Below are positions 1-19,778 of a DNA stretch of 64,000 nucleotides, in pieces (position 1 is the first letter of the stretch; each line of letters starts with the position of its first letter). Both the position numbers and the translations under genes were made by a program. Location of the stretch: IMG/VR virus record IMGVR_UViG_3300005573_000054, positions 95,484 through 159,483 of that record, one strand, 5' to 3'. This DNA comes from a virus. The notes beneath the pieces were generated by a model, which saw nothing but the letters and a program-made list of their open reading frames with translations, had not been told where the DNA came from and searched no databases.

Positions 1-853
1 ATGGGTGGGAAATTCGAGTAATCAAGCTGCTGAAGTGTCTGTGACTGGTCACGCTACTTTATCCAATACTGGAGTACTCACGATATCAGATGGAGCAATT
101 ACAGATTCGAAAGTAGCTAACAACGCAGGTATAGCGTGGACTAAAATATCTAAGAGTGGGTCTAATTTAGCAGATTTACAGACGAGAAGCGCGAGTGATT
201 TAAATAGTGGAAATCTAGATATAGCGCGGATGCCCTTGGGGGGAAACTGGGTATTAACTAGCAGTTTAGGTATAACTGGAGCTAATGTTGGTATCGGGAC
301 AACAACACCTCAGGCAAAGCTGGATGTAAATGGGAAGATACGTGCATCACAAGCTACTCAAGCTGGAGAAGTTGTAACAGCAGATAGAACCATTAACACG
401 GGTATTGGTCTTCAGGGTGGAGGAAATCTTACAGCGGATAGAACAATATCTTTAGCGAACACAGGAGTTGTTGCGGGAACGTATGGAGATGCAACACATG
501 TGGGACAATTTACCGTGGACGCACAAGGAAGAATAACTAGTGCAACTGACGTCCAGATAACTGGTGCGTCACCTGTGGGGTCAGCTTTAGGTAGTGGACA
601 TATATGGGTGGGAAATTCGAGTAATCAAGCTGCTGAAGTAGCTGTGACTGGTGACGCTACTTTATCCAATACCGGAATACTCACGATATCAAGCGGGGTA
701 ATTACAGATTCGAAAGTAGCTAGTAACGCAGGTATAGCGTGGACTAAAATATCTAAGAGCGGGTCTAACTTAGCAGATTTACAGACGAGAAGCGCGAGTG
801 ATTTAAGTAGTGGAAATCTGGATATAGCGCGGATGCCCTTGGGGGGAAACTGG
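1..853 (+). repeat. Internal direct repeat in fibre gene (1-250 vs 604-853)
   Basis: Near-identical 250-bp segments 603 bp apart, both encoding WVGNSSNQAAEV...RMPLGGNW. Confidence 0.9.
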
Positions 854-3220
854 ACGATAAGTAGTGATTTAAGTGTACTTGGAAGTGTACTTGTGGTGAA
901 AACAACGGGTAACGTCGGTGTCGGGACAACTAGTCCAGAGGCACTGTTACATGTTCAAGGAAATCTCAAAGTTACAGGACAAACGAACTTTGGAAATGTG
1001 TTTTACACGTGGCCATCGAGCGCGGGAGGTTCGAACCAGGTTTTGTCGACTAACGGAAGTGGAGGTCTAAGTTGGAAGTCAATAAACGACCTTCTTCTTT
1101 ACCCTGTTTCTCAAACCCCGGCACCGAATAGTATTGTTGTTTCAGAGTCTACTGGGAAAATTAATGCAGGATGGATACCAACTGGACCTCTTGGGTGGAT
1201 AGATAGAAAGGAGTATACGCTTTCATCAGGCAATTCAGGATATAGAAGACTTTTTACTTTTGACGGTTCTTCTATGGCTAATTCTACAGAAAAGTCAATA
1301 CGGTTCTGTATTGAGTGGAGTGGTCAGTCACCTGAAAGACGGGGAATGGCTATAGTTAAGGGGTCCGTCTATAAGCAGTATGATGGTACATTTGACCTCC
1401 TTGTTGATGTAGAATGGGAGTGGCATAAAGAAGATGACAATCATTTGGGTGTTTATGATGTTGTCCTATGGAAACCTACAAATTCTTCTGAAATAAAACT
1501 TTCATCATGGGTCTATGCTTACGGTGGTTTAACTGTTACATTGTCATTATTGGAAGCTCCATCGGATATAGTATTACCGAGTAGTTTAGTTGGTGATAAT
1601 GTTAGTAGTTATGATCTTGTTGATAGTAGGTGGCTCTTTACGGATAACATAAATACAGCTTATGCAATGCATCTTGCTAATCCTATTCCTGAGACAGGAA
1701 TACAGCGGTTTTTTGCAACAGCATCACAAACGCCTAGTGGTAGAAGTATAGTCGTTTCAAGATCTGATGGAACGATTGATCCAGGGTGGTTACCAGGTGG
1801 AGGTGGTAGTCTTCCACCAGGAAGCGCTAATCAGACTTTGAGACACGATGGCACTACATGGGTGGCAAGTAGTTTACTTGTAAACACAGGAGCGAACATC
1901 GGTATTGGGACATCGAGCCCATCACAAAAACTTGAAGTTGTCGGTAATATCAAAGTGAGCTCCTCTGATTTAGGAGTAATACTTAATGCTGATAATAGAC
2001 CGCTTATTACTCGAGGGTGGGATCCTTTTAATTCTGGAAAGTATAGTGGAATAGGTAGATGGGGACTGTTTATGGAAGAAACGAAACTCACTATAGGGAC
2101 ACCAGCTATTCCTGGTAATGGAATTGTTCAGTTTGCAAGGTATAGAGATGATAGCACAATTGATCAGGTTACGATGACGTTTGACCCATCGGGTAACGTT
2201 GGCATCGGGACAACAGTGCCAGAAACAAAGTTACATGTTCAAGGAAATCTCAAAGTTACGGGACAAACGAACTTTGGAGGAGTGTCTTACGCGTGGCCAA
2301 CAACTGGAGGAAGTTCAGGACAGGTTTTAACTACTGATGGAAATGGAAATTTGAGTTGGGCTCCAGTTGGTGGTATGGCGTTTGGATGGGCAACGACATC
2401 AGGATCAATATATGGATTAGGTTATTTAGCTGGTTGTGGAGATATAAATAATGCTCTTAAATTCGGTGGGTACTCTTTCCCATATGCTTATGGTTACACA
2501 GAAAAATGGTCAGGTAGTAGTTGGGCTACAACATCGGTATTGAAACAAGGGAGAGATTACTTGGCTGGTTGTGGAAATGTATATAATGCTCTTAGCTTTG
2601 GTGGGGAGGACGTTAGCGGGAACCCGACTGGTACTACAGAAAAGTGGTTAGGTGACTCTTGGCAAACAACAACGAGTTTACTTTGGCTAAGAGAAGGTCC
2701 GGCGGGTTGTGGAGATGTGAATAATGCTCTTAGCTTCGGTGGGCTTAGCTTCGGTGGGTATGACGATACAAGTTATCTTAGTACCACAGAAAAATGGTCA
2801 GGTAGTAGTTGGGCTACAACAACAGCTTTGAATCAAGCAAGAGGTTACTTAGCTGGTTGTGGAAATGTGAATAGTGCTCTTAGCTTTGGTGGGTATGATG
2901 ATACAAGTTATCTTAGTACTACAGAAAAATGGATGGGTAGTAGTTGGACTGTAACATCAGTTTTGAATCAGTCAAGAGCTTATTTAGCTGGTTGTGGAGA
3001 TATATATAATGCTCTTTGTTTTGGTGGGTGGAACGGTGGTGCTATTAATACCACCGAAAAATGGATAGGTACTAGTTGGGCAACAACACTAGGATTAACT
3101 GTAGGAAGACATGGTTTAGCCGGTTGTGGAAGTATTAGTGGTGCCCTTAGTTTTGGTGGAGTCACAGGTACAGATGCAGATTATGGACTTGCTACAACAG
3201 AAAAATGGTGCAGTGCATAA
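1..3220 (+). CDS. Tail fibre / receptor-binding protein (5'-truncated), GNVGIGT-repeat shaft with a C-terminal 6-blade Kelch-like beta-propeller
   Basis: Frame is open from the window edge; the GTG at 5 corresponds to the internal 'HIWVGNSSN' of the repeat copy at 604. Multiple G(N)VGIGT fibre repeats. Six C-terminal ~44-aa GCGxxxxALxFGG...TTEKW repeats. Confidence 0.8.
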   Translation, partial: WVGNSSNQAAEVSVTGHATLSNTGVLTISDGAITDSKVANNAGIAWTKISKSGSNLADLQTRSASDLNSGNLDIARMPLGGNWVLTSSLGITGANVGIGTTTPQAKLDVNGKIRASQATQAGEVVTADRTINTGIGLQGGGNLTADRTISLANTGVVAGTYGDATHVGQFTVDAQGRITSATDVQITGASPVGSALGSGHIWVGNSSNQAAEVAVTGDATLSNTGILTISSGVITDSKVASNAGIAWTKISKSGSNLADLQTRSASDLSSGNLDIARMPLGGNWTISSDLSVLGSVLVVKTTGNVGVGTTSPEALLHVQGNLKVTGQTNFGNVFYTWPSSAGGSNQVLSTNGSGGLSWKSINDLLLYPVSQTPAPNSIVVSESTGKINAGWIPTGPLGWIDRKEYTLSSGNSGYRRLFTFDGSSMANSTEKSIRFCIEWSGQSPERRGMAIVKGSVYKQYDGTFDLLVDVEWEWHKEDDNHLGVYDVVLWKPTNSSEIKLSSWVYAYGGLTVTLSLLEAPSDIVLPSSLVGDNVSSYDLVDSRWLFTDNINTAYAMHLANPIPETGIQRFFATASQTPSGRSIVVSRSDGTIDPGWLPGGGGSLPPGSANQTLRHDGTTWVASSLLVNTGANIGIGTSSPSQKLEVVGNIKVSSSDLGVILNADNRPLITRGWDPFNSGKYSGIGRWGLFMEETKLTIGTPAIPGNGIVQFARYRDDSTIDQVTMTFDPSGNVGIGTTVPETKLHVQGNLKVTGQTNFGGVSYAWPTTGGSSGQVLTTDGNGNLSWAPVGGMAFGWATTSGSIYGLGYLAGCGDINNALKFGGYSFPYAYGYTEKWSGSSWATTSVLKQGRDYLAGCGNVYNALSFGGEDVSGNPTGTTEKWLGDSWQTTTSLLWLREGPAGCGDVNNALSFGGLSFGGYDDTSYLSTTEKWSGSSWATTTALNQARGYLAGCGNVNSALSFGGYDDTSYLSTTEKWMGSSWTVTSVLNQSRAYLAGCGDIYNALCFGGWNGGAINTTEKWIGTSWATTLGLTVGRHGLAGCGSISGALSFGGVTGTDADYGLATTEKWCSA
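2383..3210 (+). repeat. Kelch-like blade array A (6 units of ~132 bp)
   Basis: Recurrent gctggttgtgga...gctcttag(t/c)tt(t/c)ggtgg and acagaaaaatgg...ggtagtagttgg frameworks. Confidence 0.9.
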
Positions 3221-3245
3221 AACATTTAAACGGAGGTATTAAACT

Positions 3246-3608
3246 ATGGCAGTAGTATATGTTAAATTCTTTTGTCAAGGAAATCCAACGAATCCAAATC
3301 AATGCACGACTCCTTGGGATAAAACAATCAAGTGTTCTATTCCAATAAACGGAATACATGAGGGTATATATTACAACCTTATGGTAATGGAGGGAGATGA
3401 AAACCTTATAAAGCAGTGGGTAAACGAGAATGTTGGTAAAGTTCAAATAATAACTAAAGATGAGGCTAACCAATTAGGACAATTACTTGTTCCTCCTGGA
3501 ACTGAGAGAACTAGAGTCGGAATGCCGGATCGAAAGGAACCTGTAACCTACATAGCAACAGAATTCGATGTTGATCATCCAGAGAATTTATGGGTAGTTA
3601 AACAGTAA
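3246..3608 (+). CDS. Small partner protein of propeller fibre (putative assembly chaperone), paralog of 12487..12849
   Basis: GGAGG RBS. Highly similar to 12487..12849, and both directly follow a propeller gene. Confidence 0.7.
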   Translation: MAVVYVKFFCQGNPTNPNQCTTPWDKTIKCSIPINGIHEGIYYNLMVMEGDENLIKQWVNENVGKVQIITKDEANQLGQLLVPPGTERTRVGMPDRKEPVTYIATEFDVDHPENLWVVKQ

Positions 3609-3659
3609 ACCATATATAAAATCTAAACCAAAAATCTAACATTAGGAGGACATTCGAAA

Positions 3660-5123
3660 ATGGACAATGAAGTAAAAGAACTTAGACCAATTCAAAAAAA
3701 CAAAGCGTTAATCTCTAACATCGATGTATTAAGAAACACAGAATTAGTTAAACCAGAAGACTTTGAATTCTTAAAAGATCACGCTGAAAAATTCCAAAAG
3801 AGATTCAGAACAAGATCTTTTTTCAGGTCTAAAACAGAAATGATTGCCGGTGTTCTAAACGACGCTGAACATCCTACTCCAGACAGTAAGTATTGGCAAG
3901 CAATTGGTGAACAAAATGTTCATCTTACAGAGTTAATTAGTCTTTCTTACGAATACAAAAAACTAGAAGCAAATAACGACCTCTTACTAGCCGAAATCGA
4001 AGAACTCGAGGACAAAATATCAAAAGAAACAAATGAAATTAAAATAAAGAAACTACAAGCCAGATTGAAAAAAAAGAGAGTCGAGTTAGCTCAAGCACAA
4101 TTTATAATGGTGCAACAGGTTAAAGTCGCTCAAGAAAGACTAAGAGAGGTAAAAACCTGGGAAGGTATCATCCAAGAGTTAGAGGGACAACTAGAGTATG
4201 GAGATGAGGATTTCGAACTCCATCATCCAAAGAGGTACTACCTAAGATACAAAAATAAAATGGAAAAGTTACAACTACTTGAACCTTCCGCGAAAGAGAA
4301 CGTCGTAAACCACTTTGAAGCATTTTCAAAACTGATCAACGAAAACCCATCTCTTATGAAACCTAATGTTCCACCGGGTCTACCAGGTAGTGCTAGTGAA
4401 GATGTTAAATCATTGGAGGAAGCATCTAAAAATGATGCCATAGTGAAAAAATACTTTGACCACAAAGTCAGAAAAATACTAGTAGTTGCACCTCATAGAA
4501 ATAAAGAAGATGGAAATGTGACTAATTTTAATTTGATGCAAGTTCCTGCTGCTTTCAGCGCATCTTTATTTGAACCTTATGGATATCTAGTAGCAGATGC
4601 TCAAAACTACGCTGTTAAAAAGGCCCTCGACGAAGGATATAACTATATCTTCTTCGTTGAAGACGATGTCTTAATCCCAAGAAATGCTTTAGTGCAGTTG
4701 ATGAAACATAACGCAGACGTTGTAGGTGGTTTCTACTATAGAAAGTATCTTCCTCTTGAATCAGCTGGAATGCACTATAACGAAAATGGAGAACCTTCGT
4801 CTATAGATGATTTTAAGATAGGAGATGTAATTCACAATACTCTTGTTTTGCCTATGGGATGTACATTGATAAAGACGGATGTGTTTAAAGATATGGAGTA
4901 TCCTTGGTACAAAGAAGTCCAGGTGAGTGGTAAACCAGCTCTTACCTCTGATACTTATATCTGTGAAAAATTTAGACAGAAGAACATTGATGTAATTACT
5001 GATACGGGTGTTCAGTGTTTACATATAGATAAAAAAAGAGGGATAATCTATGGGCATCCTGATATCGTCGATCACATCACTAATACAATACGAGAAGCGT
5101 GGAGAGAATATTTCGCTCGGTAA
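3660..5123 (+). CDS. Coiled-coil phage domain fused to GT2 (GT-A) glycosyltransferase
   Basis: N-terminal heptad-rich region with HPTPDSKYWQ. C-terminal AQNYAVKKAL...YIFFVEDDVLIP (DxD-type), ADVVGGFY, MGCTLIKTDVF, SDTYICEK, DTGVQCLH. Confidence 0.75.
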   Translation: MDNEVKELRPIQKNKALISNIDVLRNTELVKPEDFEFLKDHAEKFQKRFRTRSFFRSKTEMIAGVLNDAEHPTPDSKYWQAIGEQNVHLTELISLSYEYKKLEANNDLLLAEIEELEDKISKETNEIKIKKLQARLKKKRVELAQAQFIMVQQVKVAQERLREVKTWEGIIQELEGQLEYGDEDFELHHPKRYYLRYKNKMEKLQLLEPSAKENVVNHFEAFSKLINENPSLMKPNVPPGLPGSASEDVKSLEEASKNDAIVKKYFDHKVRKILVVAPHRNKEDGNVTNFNLMQVPAAFSASLFEPYGYLVADAQNYAVKKALDEGYNYIFFVEDDVLIPRNALVQLMKHNADVVGGFYYRKYLPLESAGMHYNENGEPSSIDDFKIGDVIHNTLVLPMGCTLIKTDVFKDMEYPWYKEVQVSGKPALTSDTYICEKFRQKNIDVITDTGVQCLHIDKKRGIIYGHPDIVDHITNTIREAWREYFAR

Positions 5124-5136
5124 CATCTGAAGGGGT

Positions 5137-5526
5137 ATGATGATTTTTAAATTTCTTTCTATTCTTAAAACTACAACACTGATTTCTATTGTGGTATGTC
5201 TCTTCTTAAGTGTATTCTATATAAAGCACCTAAGAAAAGAGGTCGACCAGTACAAATCTCTTTATAATACATCACAATACCAACTTGAGACGTGTAAGTC
5301 GACCAATAAAGAGCTTCTTGAGCAGATCTCTGTACAACGTCAAGACTACGAAGTCAAAGTAAACTCACTTCTCAGGAAGATTAAAGACCTGAGTTCAAAA
5401 ACTCCTGTCATTCAAATTCCTAAAGATGTTCCAAAAGAATCAAAAATAACCCAAGAAGAATGTTTGAAAATGGGAGTAATGCTCGATGACTTTGAGAACG
5501 CTATTAAAACGCTTGATTCTCACTAA
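5137..5526 (+). CDS. Putative inner-membrane spanin (Rz-like)
   Basis: N-terminal TM segment followed by coiled coil. Overlaps a lipoprotein gene and lies next to holin and lysin genes. Confidence 0.6.
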   Translation: MMIFKFLSILKTTTLISIVVCLFLSVFYIKHLRKEVDQYKSLYNTSQYQLETCKSTNKELLEQISVQRQDYEVKVNSLLRKIKDLSSKTPVIQIPKDVPKESKITQEECLKMGVMLDDFENAIKTLDSH

Positions 5527-5764
5527 CCTCATCATTATCATTACTCTCATTTTCTTTGGGTGTGCTTCTCCAAAGTTACAACCGGCGGTTATTGAAAAAC
5601 CTGTAATGATGAAATGCCCTATTCCGGATATACCTAAAGCCGATATTAAACCTATTCCACCTAACGCTTCGTACTTAGAGAAGCTTCAAATCATTCTTAA
5701 CAACTATATACAACTTTACCAAGAGAATATTCTTCTTCGAGAATCAATTAAGTTATGCAAATAA
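5486..5764 (+). CDS. Putative outer-membrane spanin (Rz1-like lipoprotein)
   Basis: Basic N-terminus, hydrophobic stretch, lipobox-like IFFG-C, Pro-rich mature part. Overlaps the 3' end of the upstream gene. Confidence 0.65.
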   Translation: MTLRTLLKRLILTNLIIIITLIFFGCASPKLQPAVIEKPVMMKCPIPDIPKADIKPIPPNASYLEKLQIILNNYIQLYQENILLRESIKLCK

Positions 5765-5781
5765 CTTGGAGGTATTATCCA

Positions 5782-6042
5782 ATGAAGCGTTTTCTAAAAA
5801 GATATAGCGTTGATATTTTCTTTTCGGTTTTGTTTGTTTTCTTGACGTATATCATTTCTGTAGTAGGCCAAGAGAATATTGCAGTTGTTTTTAGAAAAGT
5901 AGCGGTGTTCTCCGCGTGGTCAGTAATGTGGTATTTAAGTAGGATTCTAAAGGTTGGGTTTGTTGAGTGGTCTGAAGAGGATAAGAAGAAGTATTCTTAT
6001 GTGTATATGATCTCTTCTGCTTTAATATTTGCTCTTGCCTAG
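5782..6042 (+). CDS. Putative holin
   Basis: Small protein with about three hydrophobic segments, immediately upstream of the lysin. Start moved to the ATG after GGAGG (ORF track gives 5755). Confidence 0.55.
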   Translation: MKRFLKRYSVDIFFSVLFVFLTYIISVVGQENIAVVFRKVAVFSAWSVMWYLSRILKVGFVEWSEEDKKKYSYVYMISSALIFALA

Positions 6043-6060
6043 ACTCGCTTTGATCTAAAG

Positions 6061-6690
6061 ATGCGTAATTTTTTTTCCTGGATAATTTCGATATTCGCCA
6101 CAGTATTGTTTTTGTTTCCTTCATATGCATCATCTAATGACAGATGTAGATCAATTCAATCTCTTATAGAACAAAGCCACAAAGCCATTCTTGGAGAGGA
6201 ATATCCTTGGTGGTATGGTGTTGGCCAAGCTAAAGTAGAATCAAACTGTAAGTGGATTGCTTCCCAAGATGGTTATGGTAGTATCGGATATTTTCAATTA
6301 ACTCCAAAATTTCTTGATCCTATTATCAGACCACTCTATCCTGATTATACGAAATTCAACAGTCCACATCACTTTTACGCGGCTGCTACTTATATAAAGA
6401 TTCTGTGGAATGAATCACCTTCCCCTGTTTTGTGGGTTATTTATCAACAATATAATGGTGGGTATTGGGTGGTTAAGGAGTGTAAACGAGCTAAGTCGTG
6501 GACTTGGGAGTATTGTAAACGAGAGTGTAGGAGATCTGACGTCTGTGTAAAGTTACAGGGAGGAAAGTGTTTTCAGCATAGAAGTTCGTGTGATATTAAC
6601 TATGAGTATAGTTTAAAGGTCTTTGAAAATGGTTCTCTCTATAGACCTGATTATGTAAACGAAGATCAGCTTTTGTATTCATATTGGTAG
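6061..6690 (+). CDS. Lytic transglycosylase (SLT-like) endolysin with signal peptide
   Basis: QAKVES (catalytic Glu), GSIGYFQL and YNGG motifs. N-terminal signal-like segment ending SYA. Cys-rich C-terminus. Confidence 0.75.
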   Translation: MRNFFSWIISIFATVLFLFPSYASSNDRCRSIQSLIEQSHKAILGEEYPWWYGVGQAKVESNCKWIASQDGYGSIGYFQLTPKFLDPIIRPLYPDYTKFNSPHHFYAAATYIKILWNESPSPVLWVIYQQYNGGYWVVKECKRAKSWTWEYCKRECRRSDVCVKLQGGKCFQHRSSCDINYEYSLKVFENGSLYRPDYVNEDQLLYSYW

Positions 6691-6702
6691 AACATATTAG
6701 AG
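6690..6702 (+). promoter_or_regulatory. Candidate phage promoter, GAACAWA motif
   Basis: GAACATATTAGAG, 38 nt before ATG 6728. One of at least nine similarly placed copies. Confidence 0.5.
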
Positions 6703-6727
6703 CGTACATCGTTTAGGGAGGGTTAAA

Positions 6728-7006
6728 ATGGGAGCATTTTATGAGGAAGGCGTAGAAAGTACTATACTCGTTTTACGAGAACGTTCTAGCGTATGGATTG
6801 TTTCCACCGGAAAAAAGGAACCTACTAATTATCCTATCGTAGAACGTATCTACTGGTTTGATACATCTTCTGATGCTATCGTGTTGAAGAGGAAATTTTT
6901 GAGACAAAAAGAATGGGAAGTAGTAACTGAAGAAACCGATCAAGACTACTCTATTGTTCTCAAAAAGGCGAAAGATTCTCTTGATACGTTTCCTTTAAAA
7001 GATTAA
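6728..7006 (+). CDS. Hypothetical protein
   Basis: ORF with GGGAGGG RBS. Confidence 0.6.
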   Translation: MGAFYEEGVESTILVLRERSSVWIVSTGKKEPTNYPIVERIYWFDTSSDAIVLKRKFLRQKEWEVVTEETDQDYSIVLKKAKDSLDTFPLKD

Positions 7007-7024
7007 GAGAAAGCGAGGTCTAAA

Positions 7025-7246
7025 GTGCCAGCTAGAAGCGAGTCTCAAAGACGTCTTTTTGCTATGGCTTTGGCTTATAAAAGAGGGACTCCTCTTAGAA
7101 AAGGCCTTTCAAAAGAGATTCAGAAGACTGTTAGAGAACTTTCTAAGCTTCCTGAAAAGAAACTAGAATTATACTCAAGAAAGACGAAACCTCTACCCCA
7201 AAAGGTAAAAAAGAAGATTATTGAACTTATAGAGATTTTCCTTTAA
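7025..7246 (+). CDS. DUF3008-like small basic protein
   Basis: MPARSESQRRLFAMALAYKRG resembles the MPAKSKAQQ...ALxAKRG family start. Confidence 0.55.
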   Translation: MPARSESQRRLFAMALAYKRGTPLRKGLSKEIQKTVRELSKLPEKKLELYSRKTKPLPQKVKKKIIELIEIFL

Positions 7247-7264
7247 AAAAGAGAGGTTATTAGG

Positions 7265-9796
7265 ATGCCTACAATTAGATTAAAACGAGGAACACGATCT
7301 CAGATCTTATCAGGGAGTTTTCTCGAAGGAGAACCTCTGTTCTCAACTGATACTATGGAATTGATTCTTCAGGGAGTTTCTTCTAAAGTAATCTTAGCAA
7401 GAGCTGATCTAGATAATGTCGAGAACGTGGCAATTCTAAATAAGATAAAAGAAGTTGATGGAACAGGATCGGGACTTGACGCTGATACAGTAGATGGATT
7501 CCATGCTAGTCAAACACCTACAGCAAATCAGATTCCCGTTTTAGATTCAAACGGAATCTTGAACCTATCTTATGGAGCGAATTTAGCGATAAGTTTAGGA
7601 AAAGTTGGGATCGGAATAAGTTCTCCAAGTCAAAAATTATCGGTTTCGGGAAGAATTCAGATAGGTGACGACAATGAGTTGTCTGTTGCTGGTACTGTTC
7701 GCTGGACTGGAACAGACTTTGAAGGATATACTGGGAGTGAGTGGGCGTCTTTTACTACGTCAGGTATTACACCGAGTCCACTAGAAGAAGTTATTAAAGC
7801 TTCTGGAGCCACATTATCTGATTCAGAGGTACGTAATACTATAATTAATAATTATGGTCAAACCAGTCATATAATTTACACACTTCCAGTGGCGGCGGCT
7901 GGAATGAATTTTACTATCATTATAGGGTCAGGTGGAGAAAGTTCAGATTCTTCACTGTCGAATATTGGAAAAGCTCTTAGAATTGAACCAGATTCATCTA
8001 ATTCTATTTACTTTAATAATGTCGATGCTGGACGTGGTACTAACGTTGGAGCACCTTTGGCTATTAAAGGTTCACAGATAAAGTTTACTTCCTTTAAGAC
8101 GGGTTCTTCTAACTGGAATTGGTTGGCAGTGACGAAAGGTCTAGGATGGGATGTATGTGTGAATGTGTGGTCTATAACGTCGAGTTTAAACCAAGCAAAG
8201 AACCAATTAGCTGGTTGTGGAGATATGAATGTTGCTCTTAGTTTTGGTGGAAACACAGGTAGTACTGTTAATACTACAGAAAAATGGTCGGGTAGTAGTT
8301 GGGTTACAACATCAGCTTTGAATCAGGCAAGAGGTTACTTGGCTGGTTGTGGAAACGTAAATAATGCTCTTAGTTTTGGCGGGTGGAACGGTGCAAGTTA
8401 TCTTAGTACCACAGAAAAATGGTCAGGTAGTAGTTGGGCTACAACAACAGCTTTGAATCAAGCGAGAAGCAATCTAGCTGGTTGCGGAAATGTGAATAAT
8501 GCTCTTAGTTTTGGTGGGTGGAACGGTATTGCTGTTAATACCACCGAAAAATGGTCAGGTAGTAGTTGGACTATAACGTCGTCATTAAATCGAGCAAGAA
8601 CTGAGCTTACCGGTTGTGGAGATATAAACAACGCTCTTAGTTTTGGTGGGTGGAACGGTACAAGTTATTTTAATACCACAGAAAGATGGTCGAGTACTAG
8701 TTGGGCCACGACATCGGTTTTGAATCAAGCAAAGTCTGGTCTAGCTGGTTGTGGAAATGTAGATAATGCTCTTAGTTTTGGTGGATATACAGGTAGTACT
8801 GTTAATACCACAGAAAAATGGTCAGGTAGTAGTTGGGTTATAACATCAGTATTGAATCAAGCAAGAACTGAATTTACCGGTTGTGGAGATGTAAACACTG
8901 CTCTTAGTTTTGGCGGGTTGGGTAATACAAGTTATCTTAATATTACAGAAAAGTGGTCACCTTTCACTCCTAATTTCGTTACTGCTTGGAGAACAGCTAG
9001 TAGAATGAATCAAGCGAGAAGCAGTCTAGCTGGTTGTGGAGATGTGAATAATGCTCTTAGTTTTGGTGGGTGGAACGGTATTGCTGTTAATACCACCGAA
9101 AAATGGTCAGGTAGTAGTTGGATCACAACAACAGTTTTAAACATTACAAGAGTTGCCTTGACTGGTTGTGGAAATGTGAATAATGCTCTTAGCTTTGGTG
9201 GAGAAACAGGTGTAGGTAGTCGTGTTAATACTACAGAAAAATGGTCGGGTAGTAGTTGGGCTACAACATCAGTATTGAGCCAAGTAAAAAGCCAATTAGC
9301 TGGTTGTGGAGATATGAATACTGCTCTTTGTATTGGTGGGACCCCAGCTGGTGGTGCCGTTACTGGAACTACAGAAAAATGGTCGGGTAGTAGTTGGGCT
9401 ACAACATCATCGTTGAATCAAGCGAGATGTGCTCTAGCTGGTTGTGGAAATGTGAATAGTGCTCTTAGTTTTGCTGGGTGGGACGGTACAAATTATTTTG
9501 AGACTACAGAAAGATGGTCGGGTAGTAGTTGGGCTACAACATCAACTTTGAATCAGGTAAAACGTGATCTTGCCGGTTGTGGAAATGTGAATAATGCTCT
9601 CTGTTTTGGTGGGTGGAACAATACAAGTTATTTTAATACCACAGAGAGATGGTCGGGTAGTAGTTGGGCTACAACATCATCGTTGAATCAAGCGAGATGT
9701 GGTCTAGCTGGTTGTGGAAATGTAAATAATGCCCTTGGTTTTGGTGGAAGCACAGGTAACTACGTCGGTACTACAGAAAAATGGTCAGGAGTATGA
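7265..9796 (+). CDS. Receptor-binding protein with N-terminal KRGT (Mtd-N-like) anchor and two tandem 6-blade Kelch-like propellers
   Basis: IRLKRGT...GEP...TDT start, LDADTVDGFHAS motif, and 12 blade repeats split 6+6 by the linker SPFTPNFVTAWR. Confidence 0.8.
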   Translation: MPTIRLKRGTRSQILSGSFLEGEPLFSTDTMELILQGVSSKVILARADLDNVENVAILNKIKEVDGTGSGLDADTVDGFHASQTPTANQIPVLDSNGILNLSYGANLAISLGKVGIGISSPSQKLSVSGRIQIGDDNELSVAGTVRWTGTDFEGYTGSEWASFTTSGITPSPLEEVIKASGATLSDSEVRNTIINNYGQTSHIIYTLPVAAAGMNFTIIIGSGGESSDSSLSNIGKALRIEPDSSNSIYFNNVDAGRGTNVGAPLAIKGSQIKFTSFKTGSSNWNWLAVTKGLGWDVCVNVWSITSSLNQAKNQLAGCGDMNVALSFGGNTGSTVNTTEKWSGSSWVTTSALNQARGYLAGCGNVNNALSFGGWNGASYLSTTEKWSGSSWATTTALNQARSNLAGCGNVNNALSFGGWNGIAVNTTEKWSGSSWTITSSLNRARTELTGCGDINNALSFGGWNGTSYFNTTERWSSTSWATTSVLNQAKSGLAGCGNVDNALSFGGYTGSTVNTTEKWSGSSWVITSVLNQARTEFTGCGDVNTALSFGGLGNTSYLNITEKWSPFTPNFVTAWRTASRMNQARSSLAGCGDVNNALSFGGWNGIAVNTTEKWSGSSWITTTVLNITRVALTGCGNVNNALSFGGETGVGSRVNTTEKWSGSSWATTSVLSQVKSQLAGCGDMNTALCIGGTPAGGAVTGTTEKWSGSSWATTSSLNQARCALAGCGNVNSALSFAGWDGTNYFETTERWSGSSWATTSTLNQVKRDLAGCGNVNNALCFGGWNNTSYFNTTERWSGSSWATTSSLNQARCGLAGCGNVNNALGFGGSTGNYVGTTEKWSGV

Positions 9797-9821
9797 ATTA
9801 ATTAGACGGAGGTGTTAAGTC

Positions 9822-9860
9822 GTGGCAATAGTGTATGTTAAATTCTCGTTACGGACTTGA
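9822..9860 (+). pseudogene. 12-codon stub of the 120-aa propeller partner gene
   Basis: acggaggtgttaagtc-GTGGCAATAGTGTATGTTAAATTCTC matches the RBS and start of 12487..12849, then diverges and stops (VAIVYVKFSLRT*). Confidence 0.75.
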
Positions 9861-9900
9861 ACTATATGAACGAAGGTCAATTTCCACACTTTTATTAGTA

Positions 9901-9915
9901 GAACATATTAAGATA
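9901..9915 (+). promoter_or_regulatory. Candidate phage promoter, GAACAWA motif
   Basis: GAACATATTAAGATA, 38 nt before ATG 9939. TAGAACATATTA is shared with the 6690 copy. Confidence 0.5.
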
Positions 9916-9938
9916 AATATCGCCCGGAGAGAGTTAAA

Positions 9939-12461
9939 ATGACCACGATTAGATTAAAACGAGGAACACGATCTCAGATCTTATCAGAGAGTTTTCTCGA
10001 AGGAGAACCTTTGTTCTCGACTGATACTATGGAGCTGATTCTTCAAGGAGTTTCTTCTAAAGTAATCTTAGCGAGAGCTGATCTAGATAACGTCGAGAAT
10101 GTGACAATTCTAAATAGATTAAAAGAGGTTGATGGATCAGGATCGGGACTTGATGCTGATATAGTAGATGGATTCCATGCTAGTCAAACACCTACAGCAA
10201 ATCAGATTCCTGTTTTAAATTCAAATGGAATCTTAAATCTATCAAATGGAGCAAATTTAGCAGTAAGTTCAGGGAAAGTTGGAATTGGAATAAGTTCCCC
10301 AAGTCAGAAATTAACAGTGTCAGGAAAAATTCAGATAGGTGATGACAATGAGTCGCCTACCGCCGGCACCATTCGGTGGACTGGAACAGACTTTGAAGGA
10401 TATACTGGGAGTGAGTGGACGTCTTTTACTGCGACAAATTCACAAAAAGAAATCATCAAAGCTTCTGGAGCTACATTATCTACTTCAGAAGTACGTGATA
10501 CTATAATTAATAATTATGGTCAGACCAGCCATATAGTTTATACACTTCCACTAGCTTCTGCTGCAATGAATTTTACTATCGTTATAGGATCCGGTGGAGA
10601 AAGTTCAGATCCTTCGCTGCCGAATGTTGGAAAAGCCCTTAGAATTGAACCGAATTCATCTAATTCTATTTATTTTAATAGTGTCAATGTTGGACGTGGT
10701 ATTAATATTGGAACACCATTAGCTATCAAAGGTTCACAGATAAAGTTTACTTCCTTTAAGACGGATTCTTCAGTCTGGGATTGGTCGGTAGTAACAGAAG
10801 GTCCAGGATGGGATACATGTGTGAGTGTATGGTCTATAACGTCAAATTTAAACCAAGCAAAAGGTCAGTTAACTGGTTGTGGAGATATAAATACTGCTCT
10901 TTGTATTGGTGGGGCCCCAGCTGGTGGTGTTGTTGTTGGGACTACAGAAAGGTGGTCGGGTAGTAGTTGGGTTATAACATCATCGTTGAATCAAGCGAGA
11001 TGTAGTCTAGCTAGTTGTGGAAATGTAAATAGAGCTCTTGGCTTTGGTGGTTGGGATGGTATAAATCTTTTTAACAGCACAGAGAGATGGTCAGGTAGTA
11101 GTTGGGCTACAACATCAGCTTTGAATCAAGCAAGACGTGAACTTGCCGGTTGTGGAGATATAAACGACGCTCTTAGTTTTGGTGGGTGGAACGGTACAAG
11201 TTATCTTAGTACCACAGAAAAATGGTCAGGTAGTAGTTGGGCTACAACAACAGCTTTGAATCAGGCGAGAAGCAATCTAGCTGGTTGCGGAAATGTGAAT
11301 AATGCTCTTAGTTTTGGTGGGTGGAACGGTATTGCTGTTAATACCACCGAAAAATGGTCAGGTAGCAGTTGGGCTGTAACATCGGTATTGAATCAAGCGA
11401 GAAGTTACTTGGCTGGTTGTGGAGATGTAAACACTGCTCTTAGCTTTGGTGGAGGCACAGGTAACTACGTCGGTACTACAGAAAAATGGTCAGGTAGTAG
11501 TTGGGTCGTAACATCGGTATTGAATCAAGGGAGAGATGCTTTAGGTGGTTGTGGGAACGTGAACACCGCTCTTAGCTTTGGTGGAAGCACAGGTAATTAC
11601 GTTAGTGCTACAGAAAAATGGTCACCTTTCACTCCTAATTTTGTTTCCGGTTGGAGAACAGCTAGTGGAATGAATCAAGCAAGAGGTTACTTGGCTGGTT
11701 GTGGAGATGTAAATAATGCTCTTAGCTTTGGTGGAAGCACAGGTAGTACTGTTAATACTACCGAAAAATGGTCGGGTAGTAGTTGGATCACAACAACAGC
11801 TTTAAGCGTTGCAAGAGCTGACATAGCTGGTTGTGGAAATGTGAATAATGCTCTTAGCTTCGGTGGGTATGACGATACAAGTTATCTTAGTACCACAGAA
11901 AAATGGTCAGGTAGTAGTTGGGCTACAACAACAGCTTTGAATCAAGCAAGAGGTTACTTAGCTGGTTGTGGAAATGTGAATAGTGCTCTTAGCTTTGGTG
12001 GGTATGATGATACAAGTTATCTTAGTACTACAGAAAAATGGATGGGTAGTAGTTGGGCTACAACATCATCGTTGAATCAAGCAAGAGGTTACTTAGCTGG
12101 TTGTGGAAATGTGAATAGTGCTCTTAGCTTCGGTGGGTGGTCAGATAGTGGTGCTGTTGGCATCACAGAAAGATGGATGGGTAGTACTTGGGCTACAGCA
12201 TCATTATTAAATCAAGCAAGAAGTGATCTAGGTGGTTGTGGAGATGTAAATAATGCTCTTAGCTTTGGTGGGAGTGATGGTATAGATTTTTATTATAATA
12301 TCACGGAGAAGTGGTCAGGTAGTAGTTGGGCTACAACGTCAGTATTAAATCAAGAAAGAAGTGATCTAGGTGGTTGTGGAGATGTAAATAATGCTCTTAG
12401 CTTTGGTGGAAACGTTGATTTTAATTATCTTGGTGTTACAGAAAAATGGTTTGGAATATAA
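9939..12461 (+). CDS. Paralogous receptor-binding protein, KRGT anchor plus two 6-blade Kelch-like propellers
   Basis: N-terminal ~295 aa closely similar to 7265..9796. Twelve blades in 6+6 arrangement with the same linker but different loops. Confidence 0.8.
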   Translation: MTTIRLKRGTRSQILSESFLEGEPLFSTDTMELILQGVSSKVILARADLDNVENVTILNRLKEVDGSGSGLDADIVDGFHASQTPTANQIPVLNSNGILNLSNGANLAVSSGKVGIGISSPSQKLTVSGKIQIGDDNESPTAGTIRWTGTDFEGYTGSEWTSFTATNSQKEIIKASGATLSTSEVRDTIINNYGQTSHIVYTLPLASAAMNFTIVIGSGGESSDPSLPNVGKALRIEPNSSNSIYFNSVNVGRGINIGTPLAIKGSQIKFTSFKTDSSVWDWSVVTEGPGWDTCVSVWSITSNLNQAKGQLTGCGDINTALCIGGAPAGGVVVGTTERWSGSSWVITSSLNQARCSLASCGNVNRALGFGGWDGINLFNSTERWSGSSWATTSALNQARRELAGCGDINDALSFGGWNGTSYLSTTEKWSGSSWATTTALNQARSNLAGCGNVNNALSFGGWNGIAVNTTEKWSGSSWAVTSVLNQARSYLAGCGDVNTALSFGGGTGNYVGTTEKWSGSSWVVTSVLNQGRDALGGCGNVNTALSFGGSTGNYVSATEKWSPFTPNFVSGWRTASGMNQARGYLAGCGDVNNALSFGGSTGSTVNTTEKWSGSSWITTTALSVARADIAGCGNVNNALSFGGYDDTSYLSTTEKWSGSSWATTTALNQARGYLAGCGNVNSALSFGGYDDTSYLSTTEKWMGSSWATTSSLNQARGYLAGCGNVNSALSFGGWSDSGAVGITERWMGSTWATASLLNQARSDLGGCGDVNNALSFGGSDGIDFYYNITEKWSGSSWATTSVLNQERSDLGGCGDVNNALSFGGNVDFNYLGVTEKWFGI

Positions 12462-12486
12462 ATTAATTAAACGGAGGTGTTAAGTC

Positions 12487-12849
12487 GTGGCAACAGTGTA
12501 TGTTAAATTTTCTTGTCAAGGAAGTCCAACAGATTCAAGTAAATGTACGACTCGTTGGGATGAAACAATTAAATGCTCTATTCCAATTTGTGGAACACAT
12601 GAGGATATGTATTATAACCTCATGGTAATGGAGGGAGATGAAAACCTTATAAAACAGTGGGTAAATGAGAACACTGGTAAAGTTGAGATAATAACCAAAG
12701 ATCAAGCCAACCAATTAGGACAATTACTTGTTCCTCCGGGAACGGAAAGAACTGGCATCACGAGATGGGAGCAAGAAGAGCCTGTAACCTATATAGCAAC
12801 AAAGTTTGATGTCGATCATCCAGAGAACTTATGGGTAATTAAACAGTAG
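12487..12849 (+). CDS. Small partner protein of propeller fibre (putative chaperone)
   Basis: Paralog of 3246..3608. GGAGG RBS, GTG start. Confidence 0.7.
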   Translation: MATVYVKFSCQGSPTDSSKCTTRWDETIKCSIPICGTHEDMYYNLMVMEGDENLIKQWVNENTGKVEIITKDQANQLGQLLVPPGTERTGITRWEQEEPVTYIATKFDVDHPENLWVIKQ

Positions 12850-12883
12850 ATTAAAATCGGTATATTTATAAGGAGGTTGAGAG

Positions 12884-13171
12884 ATGGCTATTCAGTATTC
12901 TTTTTCAAGAGTAGAATTGTTTAGAGACAAAGTTACTAACGACGTAGTTAAATTAGTTATAGGAATGACGGCTCGAGATGAAGAAACAGGTGTATCTTCT
13001 TATATAGATACAGTTCATGTTTTACCTAAACCAGTTGCTTCGTTGACTAATGACGAAATAAGGGAAATATGTCTAGAAGTGGCTCAGAGGAATGAATGGT
13101 ATTCGATATTATATGGTCAAATACAGGCGCTTATTAATCAACCAGTACCAACTGAAGTAACTGATATCTAG
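12884..13171 (+). CDS. Small tail-fibre-associated hypothetical protein
   Basis: AGGAGG RBS; lies in the fibre cluster. Confidence 0.55.
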   Translation: MAIQYSFSRVELFRDKVTNDVVKLVIGMTARDEETGVSSYIDTVHVLPKPVASLTNDEIREICLEVAQRNEWYSILYGQIQALINQPVPTEVTDI

Positions 13172-13184
13172 AGGAGGTTTGTAG

Positions 13185-13439
13185 ATGAACGTAAAAGTAT
13201 CTTTTTCCGAAAAAAAAGACAATGATGGTAAGATTGTAGGGTTTATAGCAGATTTTACTGCAGAAGAAGGAACTTATAATTCGACTTCTTCTTCTGAAGT
13301 AGGCTTCGATAGTCCAGTGGATTCAATAGATGGAAAGGAAGTATTGAAAAAGTTAGATTTAACCTCAATCATTAAATCACTTAAAGACGATCTTGTAAAC
13401 AAAGGTGCAAATATAACTAAGTTAACAATTTCCTTGTAA
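13185..13439 (+). CDS. Hypothetical protein
   Basis: AGGAGG RBS; lies in the fibre cluster. Confidence 0.55.
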   Translation: MNVKVSFSEKKDNDGKIVGFIADFTAEEGTYNSTSSSEVGFDSPVDSIDGKEVLKKLDLTSIIKSLKDDLVNKGANITKLTISL

Positions 13440-13489
13440 ATCTAACTTTTCCTATATTTTGGTAATACAAGAGAGGAACTTGATCGAAG

Positions 13490-16400
13490 ATGTCCACATA
13501 CACACGATTTCCTATTCAAGTAGCGTGGTTTGGAACGGTTGAACCAGGGGATCCACCTGATGGTACAATATGGATCGATACATCAATAACTCCTCCTTTT
13601 GTAAAGGTATGGGATGGTTCGAGGTGGAGAGCTTTTGCTTCACTTTACGAAGCTTCTTTTACAATATCACCTACACCTCCCTTAGATCCTCTAAAGGGAT
13701 TTCTCTGGGTTGATACCTCCGCATCTCCAATTCTCAAAGTTTGGGATGGATCTACTTGGAAAGAAGTCGGAGGATCTGGACAAGGTCAATATCTAAACGC
13801 CGATACACTTGATGGGTTCGACGGAACATATTATTTAAGTAGAAGTAATCATACAGGAACCCAGACTCCTAATACAATAAGCCCTCAAGGCCCTGGAAGT
13901 GGTCTTAACGCAGATTTAGTAGATGGATTCCATGCCAGTCAGACACCTTCGGCAAATCAGATTCCTGTTTTAAATTCAAATGGGATCTTAAATTTATCAA
14001 ATGGAGCAAATTTAGCAACAAGTTCAGGGAAAGTCGGGATTGGGTTAACAAATCCACAGTATGAGTTAGATGTCCTCGGAGATCTACGAGTTTCAGGACA
14101 GACAAACTTCGGAGGAGTGTCTTACACGTGGCCACCGAGTGTGGGAGCTTTGAACCAGGTTTTGTCAACTAACGGAAGTGGAGGTCTAAGTTGGAAGTCA
14201 ATAAACGACCTTCTTCCTTATCCTCTTTCTCAAACCCCGGCACCGAATAGTATTGTTGTTTCAGAGTCTAGTGGGAAAATTAATGCAGGATGGATACCAA
14301 CTAGACCCTATGGGTGGATAGATAGAAAGGAGTATACGTTCTCATCATCAGATACAGGATGTAGAAGACTTTTTACTTTTGACGGTTCTTCTATAGGTGA
14401 TGAAACAGAAAAGTCAATACGGTTCTGTATTGAGTGGAGCGGTCAGTCACCTGAAAGACGGGGAATGGCTATAGTTAAGGGGTCCGTCTATAAGTGGTAT
14501 GATGGTACATTTGACCTCTTTCTTGATGTAGAATGGGAGTGGCATAAAGAAGCTTCCGATGATTTGGGTGTTTTTGGTGTTTTTCTATGGAAACCTGTAG
14601 GTCTTTCTGAAATAAGACTTTCATCATGGATCTATGCTTACAACGGTTTAACTGTTACATTGTCATTATTGGAAGCTCCACCGGATATAATGTTACCGAG
14701 TAGTTTAGTCTACGAAAATGATGATGTTAATAATTTTGAACTTCTTGATGATAGGGGTTTTCTTACGTTTAGTATAAATACAGCTTTTGCAATGCATCTT
14801 TATGATCCTATTCCTGAGACAGGAATACAGCAGTTTTTCGCAACAGCATCACAAACACCTAGTGGTAGAAGTATAGTCGTTTCAAGATCTGATGGAACAA
14901 TTGATCCAGGGTGGTTACCAAGTGGTAGCGGTAATCTTCCACCAGGAAGCACTAATCAGACTTTGAGACATAACGGTACTACGTGGGAAGCGAGTAGTTT
15001 ACTTGTAAATACAGGAACGAACATCGGTATTGGAACGACAAATCCAGGAAGTGAGTTAGACGTAGCAGGTACTGTTCAACTCAGAGGGTCTATAGTAGGG
15101 ATAGGGTTATATGTCGATCCCTTCGGTGATGTCGGCATCGGGACAACGACACCAAAGGGAAAATTACAAGTGGTAGGAAATGCGTATATAGATGATAGGC
15201 TATTCGTTAGAAGTGGAAGCGGATGGCCAGGTTCACCAGCCATTTCTCTGGCTATAGGAGATTATGATACAGGATTCAATTGGATTTCAGATGGCAATTT
15301 AGCAATTTACACTAACAACGCTGAAAGAATAAGAATTGATTCTTCTGGCAACGTCGGTATTGGGACGACGGTACCAGGAGCGAAGTTACATGTAAATGGA
15401 AATCTCAAAGTTGAGGGACAAACGAACTTCGGAGGAGTGTCTTACACGTGGCCAACAAGCGCTGGAACTCCGGGACAGGTTTTGACTATTGGTGCAAATG
15501 GAAGTCTAAGTTGGTCTACAGTTAGTGGTGGTGGTAGTCTCCCGTCAGGAAGCGCTAATCAGACTTTAAGACACGATGGCACTTCATGGGTAGCAAGTAG
15601 TTTACTTGTAAACACAGGAACGAACATCGGTATTGGAACGACGACACCAGGAGCGAAGTTACATGTAGCGTCTACAGGTGAAGCTTTAAGAATTATGCCT
15701 AACACAATGGTTACTGGGGAATACACATCTATTTCCTTTAGAGACCCTGACGGAGGAACAGGGCCTATGGAAATTCGTTATACAGATGATGGTTCTCCAG
15801 ATCTAGCAATTTTAGGTGGTAACTTTGGTATTGGAACGACAAGTCCAACTGGAAAATTGCATGTTTCGGGAGGTAATGCAATATTTGATGGCAACGTTGG
15901 CATTGGAACGACGGCACCTGGGGCGAAACTTGAAATTTCAGGTGGAGCATTAGCAATAAATGCAAATTACTTCTATTTAGGAGCACCGGGTGACACTGCA
16001 CACTATATTAAATATGCGGGAACCAAAAACGGTATAACTGATTCTGACATCTTTAGTTTTAACAATGCATTACAGTTTGCTTATTTAGACTCTTCACCTC
16101 GCATGGTAATTTTAGGACCAAGCGGCAACATCGGTATTGGAACGACGGTACCAGGAGCGAAGTTACATGTAGTTGCAGCGGGTGGATTCGGTAACGAGCC
16201 TATTCGGGTACAAGCTAATAATACGTTCTTTAGTGGTATAGACGCTGGAGGTACACAGCGCTTTGCTATTAATAATGATCCAGGTCCAGTATTAAGTTTT
16301 AACGGTTACGATACTAATTGGTTTAACTTTATGACTGTGAGTAATACTGGTAGTAGAACAGTTTCATTTAATGCTGGTAATGTCGGTATTGGGACGACGG

Positions 16401-18596: not shown

Positions 18597-19778
18597 ATGG
18601 CAATCCAAATTCAAAACAGTGATAAAGTTGATATTCTCTTTGTGGGTAATACAGGGTATCCGTTTTCTCACTCTGGTGTCGGAACGTTTATACGGACACT
18701 TATTCAAGAAATGCCTTCATTGACGTTTGGCATTTTATCCTTGATGAGTGGTAACGCTTCTTCAATTATATGGGATCTTCCTGGAAATGTTCGTTTCGTG
18801 GCTTCACAAGAAGTTCCAAGAAGTTTGGAACCACATAAGATTTCAACTTCGGGTGTAGAAGATTTCATGAAGGAAACTATAAATGAAATCTTTCCCAAAA
18901 TTTCTCCCAGAATAGTTCACGCAGTTTCACCAGAGTATTCTGGGTTGTTTGCAAAAACTCTTAAATTGAATCATAGTATTCCCGTTGTTTACACGGAACA
19001 TTACGATATTATTCAGCTTAGGGAAGCAATGAAAGATCTTATAATAGAAGAGGATAGATCTACATTCGATCCTATTTTTGAAGAGTCGAGACGATGTCTA
19101 TATAATTTTAGTGACATCGTAGTACTTGTAGATAATGTTTCCATGGAGAAGTATTTGAAACTTGGTGGAAGAGAAGAAAAGGCTCGAGTAATCTCGAATG
19201 CTGTTAATGTTAACTTGTTTTCTCAATATGTGAAAGATTTTTCTGAAAAATCTAATGTGGTTGTTTATGTTTCAAGGTCTTCTCCTCACAAAAACATCGT
19301 TGATTTTATTCAAGTTATCAAAATTCTTAATGAAAGAGATAGTTCAATAGAAGGTCTTCTTATCGGTATAGGAGAAAGAGAATCTTTACCTTATGAGTTT
19401 GTTAAAGTTATTCCTTTTACGAGTAATACTATTGAACAGCTTTCTAAAGCGAAAGTGTTCCTTTCAACTAGTAGATATGAAACGAATACTATTGCTGTTT
19501 TAGAAGCTTTAGCTTGTGGAGTTCCTTGTGTTTTAACAAATGTAGGTAGCCATGAAGAGATAATTTATGGAAAAACGATTGAGGATAAGCTTAAAGGTTA
19601 TTGTGGGTTTATAGTAAGAGTCGGAGATATAGATCAGATGGTTGATTCAGTTTATAAGTTGTTAAATGATGAGAAGTTGTGGATGAAATATAGAGATGTT
19701 GGTCTACAAAGAGTTTCGTCTCAATACTCTATTGATAAAATGGTTTCAGAGTACTTAAAAGTATATACTTCGTTTTGA
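18597..19778 (+). CDS. GT4 (GT-B) glycosyltransferase, PelF-like
   Basis: GYPFSHSGVGTFIRTLI, YTEH, ISNAVNV, SR..PHKNI, SRYETNTIAVLEALACGVPCVLTNVGS, and a PelF-like EDKLKGYCG insert. Confidence 0.8.
   Translation: MAIQIQNSDKVDILFVGNTGYPFSHSGVGTFIRTLIQEMPSLTFGILSLMSGNASSIIWDLPGNVRFVASQEVPRSLEPHKISTSGVEDFMKETINEIFPKISPRIVHAVSPEYSGLFAKTLKLNHSIPVVYTEHYDIIQLREAMKDLIIEEDRSTFDPIFEESRRCLYNFSDIVVLVDNVSMEKYLKLGGREEKARVISNAVNVNLFSQYVKDFSEKSNVVVYVSRSSPHKNIVDFIQVIKILNERDSSIEGLLIGIGERESLPYEFVKVIPFTSNTIEQLSKAKVFLSTSRYETNTIAVLEALACGVPCVLTNVGSHEEIIYGKTIEDKLKGYCGFIVRVGDIDQMVDSVYKLLNDEKLWMKYRDVGLQRVSSQYSIDKMVSEYLKVYTSF

Follow-up and report, generated by a model that had tools for sequence, protein, structure and literature searches.

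The stretch analysed here (the window) makes up the final 64 kb of an IMG/VR virus contig of 159,483 bases (IMGVR_UViG_3300005573_000054; estimated completeness 50%), and it encodes three paralogous tail-fibre-type genes, A, B and C, that together carry 30 Kelch-fold blades. These blades probably evolve as one pool by ectopic gene conversion, in a slow reshuffling that is not programmed. Ordinary ectopic gene conversion does shuffle blades and half-blades, throughout the family and at a slow pace. All genes of the window lie on the plus strand. Because they include genes for tail proteins (tail-fibre, baseplate and tape-measure), for the two large subunits of a multi-subunit RNA polymerase and for a RecA/UvsX-like protein, we assign the contig to a large phage, one with no obvious tie to the T4-like cyanophages. 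The propeller genes themselves are flanked by fibre, baseplate and tape-measure genes, and are laid out as follows:

2–3220, plus strand: gene A, tail-fibre-like (phrog tail-fibre matches), with a fibre-type N-terminal part and one C-terminal propeller
2363–3220, plus strand: propeller of gene A, blades A01–A06 (six TE[KR]W units)
7265–9796, plus strand: gene B, 843 amino acids (aa), with an N-terminal fibre/attachment part of 293 aa and two six-bladed propellers
9939–12461, plus strand: gene C, 840 aa, a paralogue of B with two six-bladed propellers

Results

Three fibre genes carry blades with a constant frame and two variable slots

The 5′ end of gene A is cut off by the window, and the entire protein, which starts about 1 kb upstream, has 1415 aa. 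In gene B, blades B01–B06 run from ~8141 and B07–B12 from 8945; in gene C, whose N-terminal part is 83% identical to that of B at the amino-acid level, C01–C06 run from ~10809 and C07–C12 from 11610. The N-termini of B and C both give a weak match to Mtd_N, below threshold.

The initial annotation of this DNA had described three genes with 6, 12 and 12 repeats of ~132 bp, beginning at 2383 and always numbering a multiple of six. The TE[KR]W anchors are indeed spaced 44–50 aa apart, equivalent to 132–150 nucleotides (nt), with a period of 135 in Tandem Repeats Finder, and the counts hold, a relative described below (L013) also having 12 blades; the start was placed slightly late, since the first blade begins at ~2363. 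In both B and C a linker blade of 50 aa forms the seventh unit, so that each of these genes carries 2 x 6 blades. The annotation had also quoted four framework stretches of 12–17 nt as near-invariant at the DNA level, and this too is what we find: they occur exactly in 16–20 of the 30 blades and with at most one mismatch in 23–27. At the latter stringency, the arrays aside, the window contains one match, at 35777, and the remaining 95 kb of the contig contain no match.

Two slots are hypervariable, as had been claimed, with an entropy of 2.8–3.0 bits for the two positions that follow NQA(R/K) and of 1.8–2.8 bits at most columns of the loop after FGG. Frame entropy is mostly at or below 1.2 bits, with columns 16, 20, 24 and 36 as exceptions (1.7–2.5 bits), and the frame retains FGG in 28–30 of the 30 units and its two Trp positions in 29 and 30 of them. 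The same loop alleles recur with different slot-2 partners, again in line with the earlier description: YDDTSYLS is found in A03, A04, C08 and C09 with EG, GY, AD and GY, respectively, and WNGIAVN in B03, B07 and C04 with SN, SS and SN, while slot-2 GY is found beside four different loops. Genes A, B and C are complete open reading frames, with no asymmetry between an expression site and donors, and the 159-kb contig holds no blade-like sequence outside these three intact genes, i.e. no silent cassettes.

The predicted fold places both variable slots on one face

A model of B residues 294–567 was generated using AlphaFold2 from an alignment of 105 single propellers. This model (predicted local distance difference test, pLDDT, 97.9; predicted template-modelling score, pTM, 0.93) contains 24 strands, arranged as six four-stranded blades, in which the first strand (VWSIT) lies before blade 1 and the chain terminates after the TEKW strand. 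When it was compared with the PDB using Foldseek, Kelch domains led the matches (NS1-BP, KLHL12, Keap1, Plasmodium K13 and the designed SAKe6), with E ~1e-18, template-modelling (TM) scores of 0.8–0.86 and a sequence identity of ~19%. The best matches in BFVD include phage proteins labelled Kelch repeat or virion structural protein. The proposal that the units are Kelch blades in six-bladed propellers is thus borne out by a predicted model and Foldseek, as opposed to a solved structure. Because the sequences miss the gathering cut-off of Kelch_1 (PF01344; 20.1 bits), with a best score of 11.1 bits (E 0.3) for gene A and no match for B and C, we speak of a Kelch-fold propeller and not of a member of that Pfam family.

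Each blade runs from strand A (LAGC) through a tight turn to strand B (ALSF-GG), then through a long loop (slot 1) to strand C (TEKW), and from there through a second tight turn to strand D (W-x-T-T) and the long D-A loop that ends in slot 2. A typical blade has 44–46 aa, with 7–13 aa in slot 1 (the B-C loop), and slot 2 consists of the last two residues of the D-A loop. A meander of four such strands brings the B-C and D-A connections to the same side, which puts both variable slots on one face, as the initial annotation had suggested checking; the basis for this is blade topology, not coordinates. In Keap1, the ligand pocket lies on the face made by the D-A and B-C loops (PMC12314335), and by analogy the corresponding face of the phage propellers may be a ligand- or receptor-binding surface. 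In a model of two consecutive propellers, each has a pLDDT of 91, and their mutual orientation is unreliable (pTM 0.61, with a low-confidence linker).

Blades and half-blades are exchanged between positions, propellers and genes

Set against a background mean blade identity of ~0.73, several tracts are identical or nearly so. An exact 204-nt match joins 2744..2947 (the end of A03, all of A04 and the start of A05) to 11853..12056 (C08–C10), both on the plus strand, and is the product of recent ectopic conversion between non-equivalent blade positions. At its left edge lies the sole length scar of exchange:

2729–2758, plus strand: perfect 15-nt tandem duplication that adds LSFGG to A03, positioned exactly at that edge (a possible junction scar)

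A 169-nt tract with one mismatch links 8394..8562 (the end of B02, B03 and the start of B04) with 11197–11365 (the end of C03, C04 and the start of C05), and is out of register by one blade between the two genes. Within gene B, an exact 81-nt tract, 8490..8570 and 9042–9122, connects blade 3 of propeller 1 (B03) with blade 1 of propeller 2 (B07), and carries the WNGIAVN loop together with both flanking frames. The left half of B07 is nearest to its positional partner, C07, whereas on the right B07 shares 97% identity with B03/C04; this is a half-blade swap of the kind that the initial annotation had proposed.

Across the set, nearest neighbours differ between left and right halves in most blades, the pairwise homoplasy index (PHI) test for recombination gives p<0.0005, and maximum-likelihood trees of the two half-blades are mutually rejected. 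Since these trees rest on ~85 nt each, and such short data overfit, approximately unbiased tests alone were judged unsafe, and random column partitions were added as a control. The summed difference in log-likelihood between the half-blade trees was 311.7, compared with 135.7±29.3 in the random partitions, none of the 150 reaching the observed value. Building separate trees for each half-blade had been suggested as a check on the initial annotation; the trees are incongruent beyond all 150 random partitions.

There are 204 exact matches of at least 20 nt among the blades. These concentrate in two frame blocks, so that every variable slot is bordered by sequence on which homologous recombination can act. 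As blade count is unchanged, the events are to be understood as replacements (conversion) and not as insertions.

A polymorphic tract in the neighbouring fibre gene E

Close to the arrays lies a further fibre gene that shares a domain with gene A:

13490–17605, plus strand: gene E, tail fibre of 1371 aa (S74-type C-terminus in the relative contig)

The shared fibre domain, of ~335 aa, is duplicated between A (908–1911) and E (14027–15036) with 86% nucleotide identity; over ~335 codons, 74 differ non-synonymously and 24 synonymously. The substitution spectrum, which was tabulated for this duplicate only and not for the blades, is balanced, with no adenine bias. Over 18.3 kb, nine substitutions separate the window from a 60-kb contig of another assembly (L012; JGI 3300027863), and eight of the nine cluster in gene E at 14361..14440 (plus strand; L012 10204–10283). 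At all eight of these sites L012 agrees with the paralogue in gene A (~1240–1320), and the flanking sites diagnostic for A or E are E-type. The polymorphism is an 80–140-nt conversion tract templated by gene A, similar in length to the blade tracts, which means that ectopic conversion is ongoing in the fibre cluster. It is the only clustered difference between the two populations, and the blades are untouched. In addition, gene E of L012 contains a perfect tandem duplication of 231 nt (77 aa; 12219–12709) that is single-copy in the window (~16376–16635), making its protein 1448 aa long, compared with 1371 aa. With one conversion tract and one 231-nt duplication set against one isolated point change, recombination events outnumber point changes between these populations.

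The arrays are stable across assemblies and lack dedicated diversification machinery

Besides the window, three independent assemblies from other samples contain the locus (JGI 3300002182, JGI 3300027863 and ENA ERZ27247228). Over the parts that they cover, the blade arrays show zero differences. Two of the contigs (L010 and L011) stop inside long exact repeats (2847, 11349, 11993), which explains the breaks and shows the repeats to be real. The possibility of chimeric assembly, raised in the initial annotation, can thus be set aside for the arrays, since four assemblies agree base for base where covered. Among the shorter proteins of a collection of 15 billion, no near-identical variant blade fragments were found above 70% identity. 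A search of the phage GenBank collection gave no DNA or protein match, IMG/VR yielded no relatives by protein patterns or by a DNA pattern of the frame, and a metagenome scan for relatives returned L013 only.

In the 159-kb contig, there is no match to reverse transcriptase (RVT_1), nor to the serine and tyrosine recombinase families Resolvase and Phage_integrase, and the repeats are all direct and on the same strand, with no shufflon or invertase features. Taken with the tracts, the PHI test and the tree incongruence, the lack of these families agrees with the earlier suggestion that blades and half-blades are swapped, both inside a gene and from one of the three to another, with no diversity-generating retroelement (DGR) or invertase involved. 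Two drivers had been proposed for the process. The RecA/UvsX-like gene exists, and is a possible, though unproven, catalyst of the blade exchanges; a Cas4-like gene was not found, as Cas4/PDDEXK families (PF12705, PF01930) have no match in the 159-kb contig.

54237–55379, plus strand: RecA/UvsX-like recombinase gene (PF00154, E 1e-17)

Turnover is slow, and dN/dS differs between loops and frame

The N-terminal domains of B and C differ by a proportion of synonymous differences (pS) of 0.27. Blades at equivalent positions in the two genes have synonymous distances of 0.15–0.53 (mean 0.33), compared with 0.40 for non-positional pairs, so that about half of the positional correspondences have been erased. 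That about half survive at a pS of ~0.27 implies that turnover is slow. In the syntenic relative L013, whose N-terminal domain is 76% identical, a single gene of 12 blades is present, and these blades are closest to one another (up to 0.90, for D09–D11) and not to their positional partners, with the special blades 1 and 7 as exceptions. In a comparison of 12 homologues, blades of one protein or genome share an identity of 0.60 and those of different proteins 0.48, and frame variants are protein-specific. This likeness of blades within a genome is the signature of concerted evolution, and the signal is weak at synonymous sites for the closest sister lineage.

Frame codon homozygosity is 0.75, compared with 0.37 expected from codon usage. 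Frame codon identity (0.64–0.83) is at the level of the non-repeat N-terminal domain between sister lineages (0.66–0.72), so no special selection at the nucleotide level is needed, and we dropped the idea that such selection acts on the frame. The ratio of non-synonymous to synonymous change (dN/dS) rises from 0.33 in the frame to 1.14 in the slots, with a pS of 0.39 in the frame and 0.46 in the loops.

A large family of propellers, and its likeness to known systems

The phrog_27227 profile, which is annotated with no function, spans the repeats of all three genes (E 5e-96 in B, 5e-105 in C and 4.5e-38 in A). A search with a propeller profile returned 4,323 representatives of 50%-identity clusters at E<=1e-30, and in a single protein the profile can match as many as about nine stretches. 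Precomputed PF01344 or PF24681 matches are attached to a few homologues, and Phage_fiber_2, PKD, collagen and laminin-G-like domains occur among the N-terminal partners. Two unrelated contigs carry three tandem 12-blade paralogues of equal length, L014 at 6354–17270 (1214, 1210 and 1211 aa) and L015 at 10001–17358 (812, 812 and 819 aa), which adjoin baseplate or lysis genes and show off-register exact matches among the paralogues. A set of three paralogues recurs in the propeller family. Our search found no literature describing these Kelch propellers as phage binding heads.

One of the two closest parallels in mode of evolution is found in a fungus. In Podospora anserina, units of the WD40 repeats of the HNWD genes (het-d, het-e and het-r) are exchanged both inside a gene and from one paralogue to another (Paoletti, Saupe & Clave 2007, PMC1805685). 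In both cases, the repeats build a beta-propeller, are alike at the DNA level, evolve in concert and vary at a few hypervariable positions of the interaction face; here, too, blades are more alike within a genome (0.60 vs 0.48) and units have moved between loci (204 nt between A and C, 169 nt between B and C). HNWD proteins function in recognition, so that on this point the likeness depends on the putative binding role of the phage propellers. The HNWD blades are of the WD40 type, have no homology to the phage propellers and lie on a fungal chromosome subject to repeat-induced point mutation (RIP). Moreover, HNWD repeat number is highly polymorphic, whereas the phage arrays are fixed at six per propeller: we found the same 6, 12 and 12 in the assemblies that cover them, and 12 in L013.

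The other is found among phages: in the gp38 adhesin of T-even phages, conserved glycine-rich motifs form the core and alternate with hypervariable segments (Trojet et al. 2011, PMC3157838), and motif-mediated recombination of T-even distal tail fibres is attributed there to Tetart et al. (1996, 1998). As proposed for the blades, exchanges in or near conserved motifs of gp38 yield chimeric specificities by general recombination, with no dedicated enzyme. The fold and sequence of gp38 are unrelated to those of the propellers, four hypervariable segments in one small protein stand against 30 blades in three genes, and the exchanges shown for gp38 are between phages, whereas those described here are between paralogous positions in one genome. 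In structure, the propellers resemble BTB-Kelch adaptors (Keap1, KLHL12, NS1-BP) and SAKe6, with which they share a six-bladed, four-stranded fold (TM 0.8–0.86), a GG doublet and a conserved Trp, and the D-A and B-C loops of the Keap1 ligand face match the positions of the phage slots (PMC12314335). They differ in sequence (~19% identity, below the Pfam Kelch_1 threshold), in lacking BTB and BACK domains and in sitting as a tandem double on a fibre. With the DGR of Bordetella phage BPP-1 (Mtd) and the variable lymphocyte receptors (VLRs) of lampreys they have in common a binding surface diversified on a constant scaffold; unlike a DGR, the locus has no reverse transcriptase and no pair of template and variable repeats, and unlike a VLR locus it has no incomplete germline gene with silent cassettes.

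Genes accompanying the propellers

Two paralogous genes of 120 aa stand directly behind propeller genes:

3246–3608, plus strand: 120-aa gene directly after gene A, 78% identical in amino acids to the 120-aa gene after gene C
12487–12849, plus strand: 120-aa gene directly after gene C, paralogue of 3246–3608

The paralogue is present behind A and C and absent behind B, and neither copy has a family match; they may code for fibre assembly or accessory proteins that were duplicated along with the propeller end. The fibre cluster also contains glycosyltransferase-like genes, at 3660–5123 (between A and B) and at 18597–19778 (downstream of gene E).

Discussion

Drawing these data together, we propose the following model. 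The fibre head would be formed by one (A) or two (B and C) six-bladed propellers, with the long-loop face serving as binding surface. Homologous recombination would use the 20–45-nt identical blocks in the two frame segments for non-reciprocal ectopic gene conversion, by which a half-blade, a whole blade or several consecutive blades would be copied to another position, propeller or gene, with the number in each propeller staying at six. The frame would be held by purifying selection (dN/dS 0.33), and the loops would change at a rate near the neutral one or above it (~1.1). The outcome would be a slowly reshuffled set of binding surfaces and no per-infection generator of diversity. That the RecA/UvsX-like recombinase takes part and that selection acts on host range are inferences within this model.

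Several observations weigh against it. Identity tracts necessarily end in conserved frame, so that the true breakpoints are not located. Frame blades are separated by synonymous distances of 0.39–0.44 within a lineage and 0.42 between lineages, close to the 0.37–0.385 of the N-terminal orthologues, and these near-equal values would also fit one ancestral homogenisation followed by mostly independent divergence with only a few later conversions. A slot dN/dS of ~1 is compatible with positive or diversifying selection and with relaxed constraint alike. Receptor binding by the propellers is a putative role, suggested by gene context. Finally, the contig represents only about 50% of the genome, and the rest could hold the gene for a diversifying enzyme.

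The near-equal frame distances also suit the view that the arrays arose mostly by duplication and divergence, having been homogenised or built anew once, in a recent ancestor, and then changed by point mutation and loop indels, with the identical tracts as rare accidents that play no part in specificity. In addition to those distances, the equality of codon identity between frame and N-terminal domain and the similar pS of loop and frame (0.46 and 0.39) speak for this view. We nevertheless consider it unlikely, because the PHI signal and the half-blade incongruence are significant over the whole set, beyond the three tract pairs, and because at least five positional B/C correspondences have been erased; pairs that postdate the split within L013 (e.g. 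D09–D11 at 0.90), off-register exact matches in unrelated loci with triple paralogues and the clustering of blades by genome across the family argue in the same direction. At the other extreme, a phage UvsX-like recombinase might convert blades in each infection, so that bursts contain host-range variants, much as in pilE/pilS and vlsE and, loosely, in the VLRs. Many 20–45-nt identical frame blocks flanking every variable slot, the presence of a RecA/UvsX-like gene, and the excess of recombination events over point changes between the near-clonal populations of the window and L012 would all suit such a high-frequency generator. It is very unlikely, however, given that the arrays of three other independent assemblies from different samples show no difference at all, that shorter proteins include no near-identical variant fragments, and that about half of the B/C positional correspondences remain at a pS of ~0.27. 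There are, besides, no signals of silent cassettes, reverse transcriptase, deaminase-type enzymes or site-specific recombinases, and the three genes are intact, without asymmetry between expression site and donors. The VLR-like, high-rate combinatorial generator envisaged in the initial annotation is therefore not upheld, in view of the complete open reading frames, the lack of silent cassettes, the identity of the arrays between assemblies and the B/C correspondences that have been kept. A related proposition, that conversion catalysed by RecA/UvsX is the dominant mutational process in the fibre cluster and continuously yields rare variants of blade order and loop combination in each population, strikes us as quite improbable; if true, it would give phages a recombination-based generator of host-range diversity like bacterial antigenic variation, minus the silent cassettes.

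Two further alternatives concern what the propellers do and whether the repeats are genuine. The propellers might not be receptor-binding heads at all, and might instead decorate the capsid or fibre, act as an enzyme of the galactose-oxidase type or bind a host target inside the cell. The unknown function of phrog_27227, the absence of any Pfam model above threshold and the labels of phage Kelch-fold proteins in BFVD, which go no further than structural or uncharacterised, with some 'galactose oxidase', leave room for such a role. Their C-terminal position on long fibre-type proteins within a fibre/baseplate cluster, the other fibre N-termini found in homologues (Phage_fiber_2, collagen, PKD) and the concentration of variability on the Kelch ligand face count against it and make it a rather improbable explanation. 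That the repeats and tracts stem from chimeric or collapsed metagenome assembly has a negligible chance of being correct. The breaks of L010 and L011 inside long exact repeats do show that assemblers struggle here, but over the covered arrays there is base-for-base agreement among four assemblies, which come from different samples and different pipelines, a two-copy direct repeat allows only one full traversal, and the reading frames are intact, with a predicted fold of pLDDT 97.9.

Slow reshuffling by ectopic gene conversion thus remains the probable account of this locus, which provides the clearest evidence so far of how fibre-borne Kelch heads change, namely by copying between positions and genes. 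The propeller family to which it belongs is very large, with thousands of 50%-identity clusters, and neither Pfam nor PHROGs assigns it a function. For engineered binders, a frame that stays constant and loops that can be exchanged offer a natural template. For the phages themselves, the locus offers a testable model in which host specificity may be re-tuned through a reshuffled pool of resident blades, comparable to the WD40 recognition genes of fungi and to gp38 of T-even phages.

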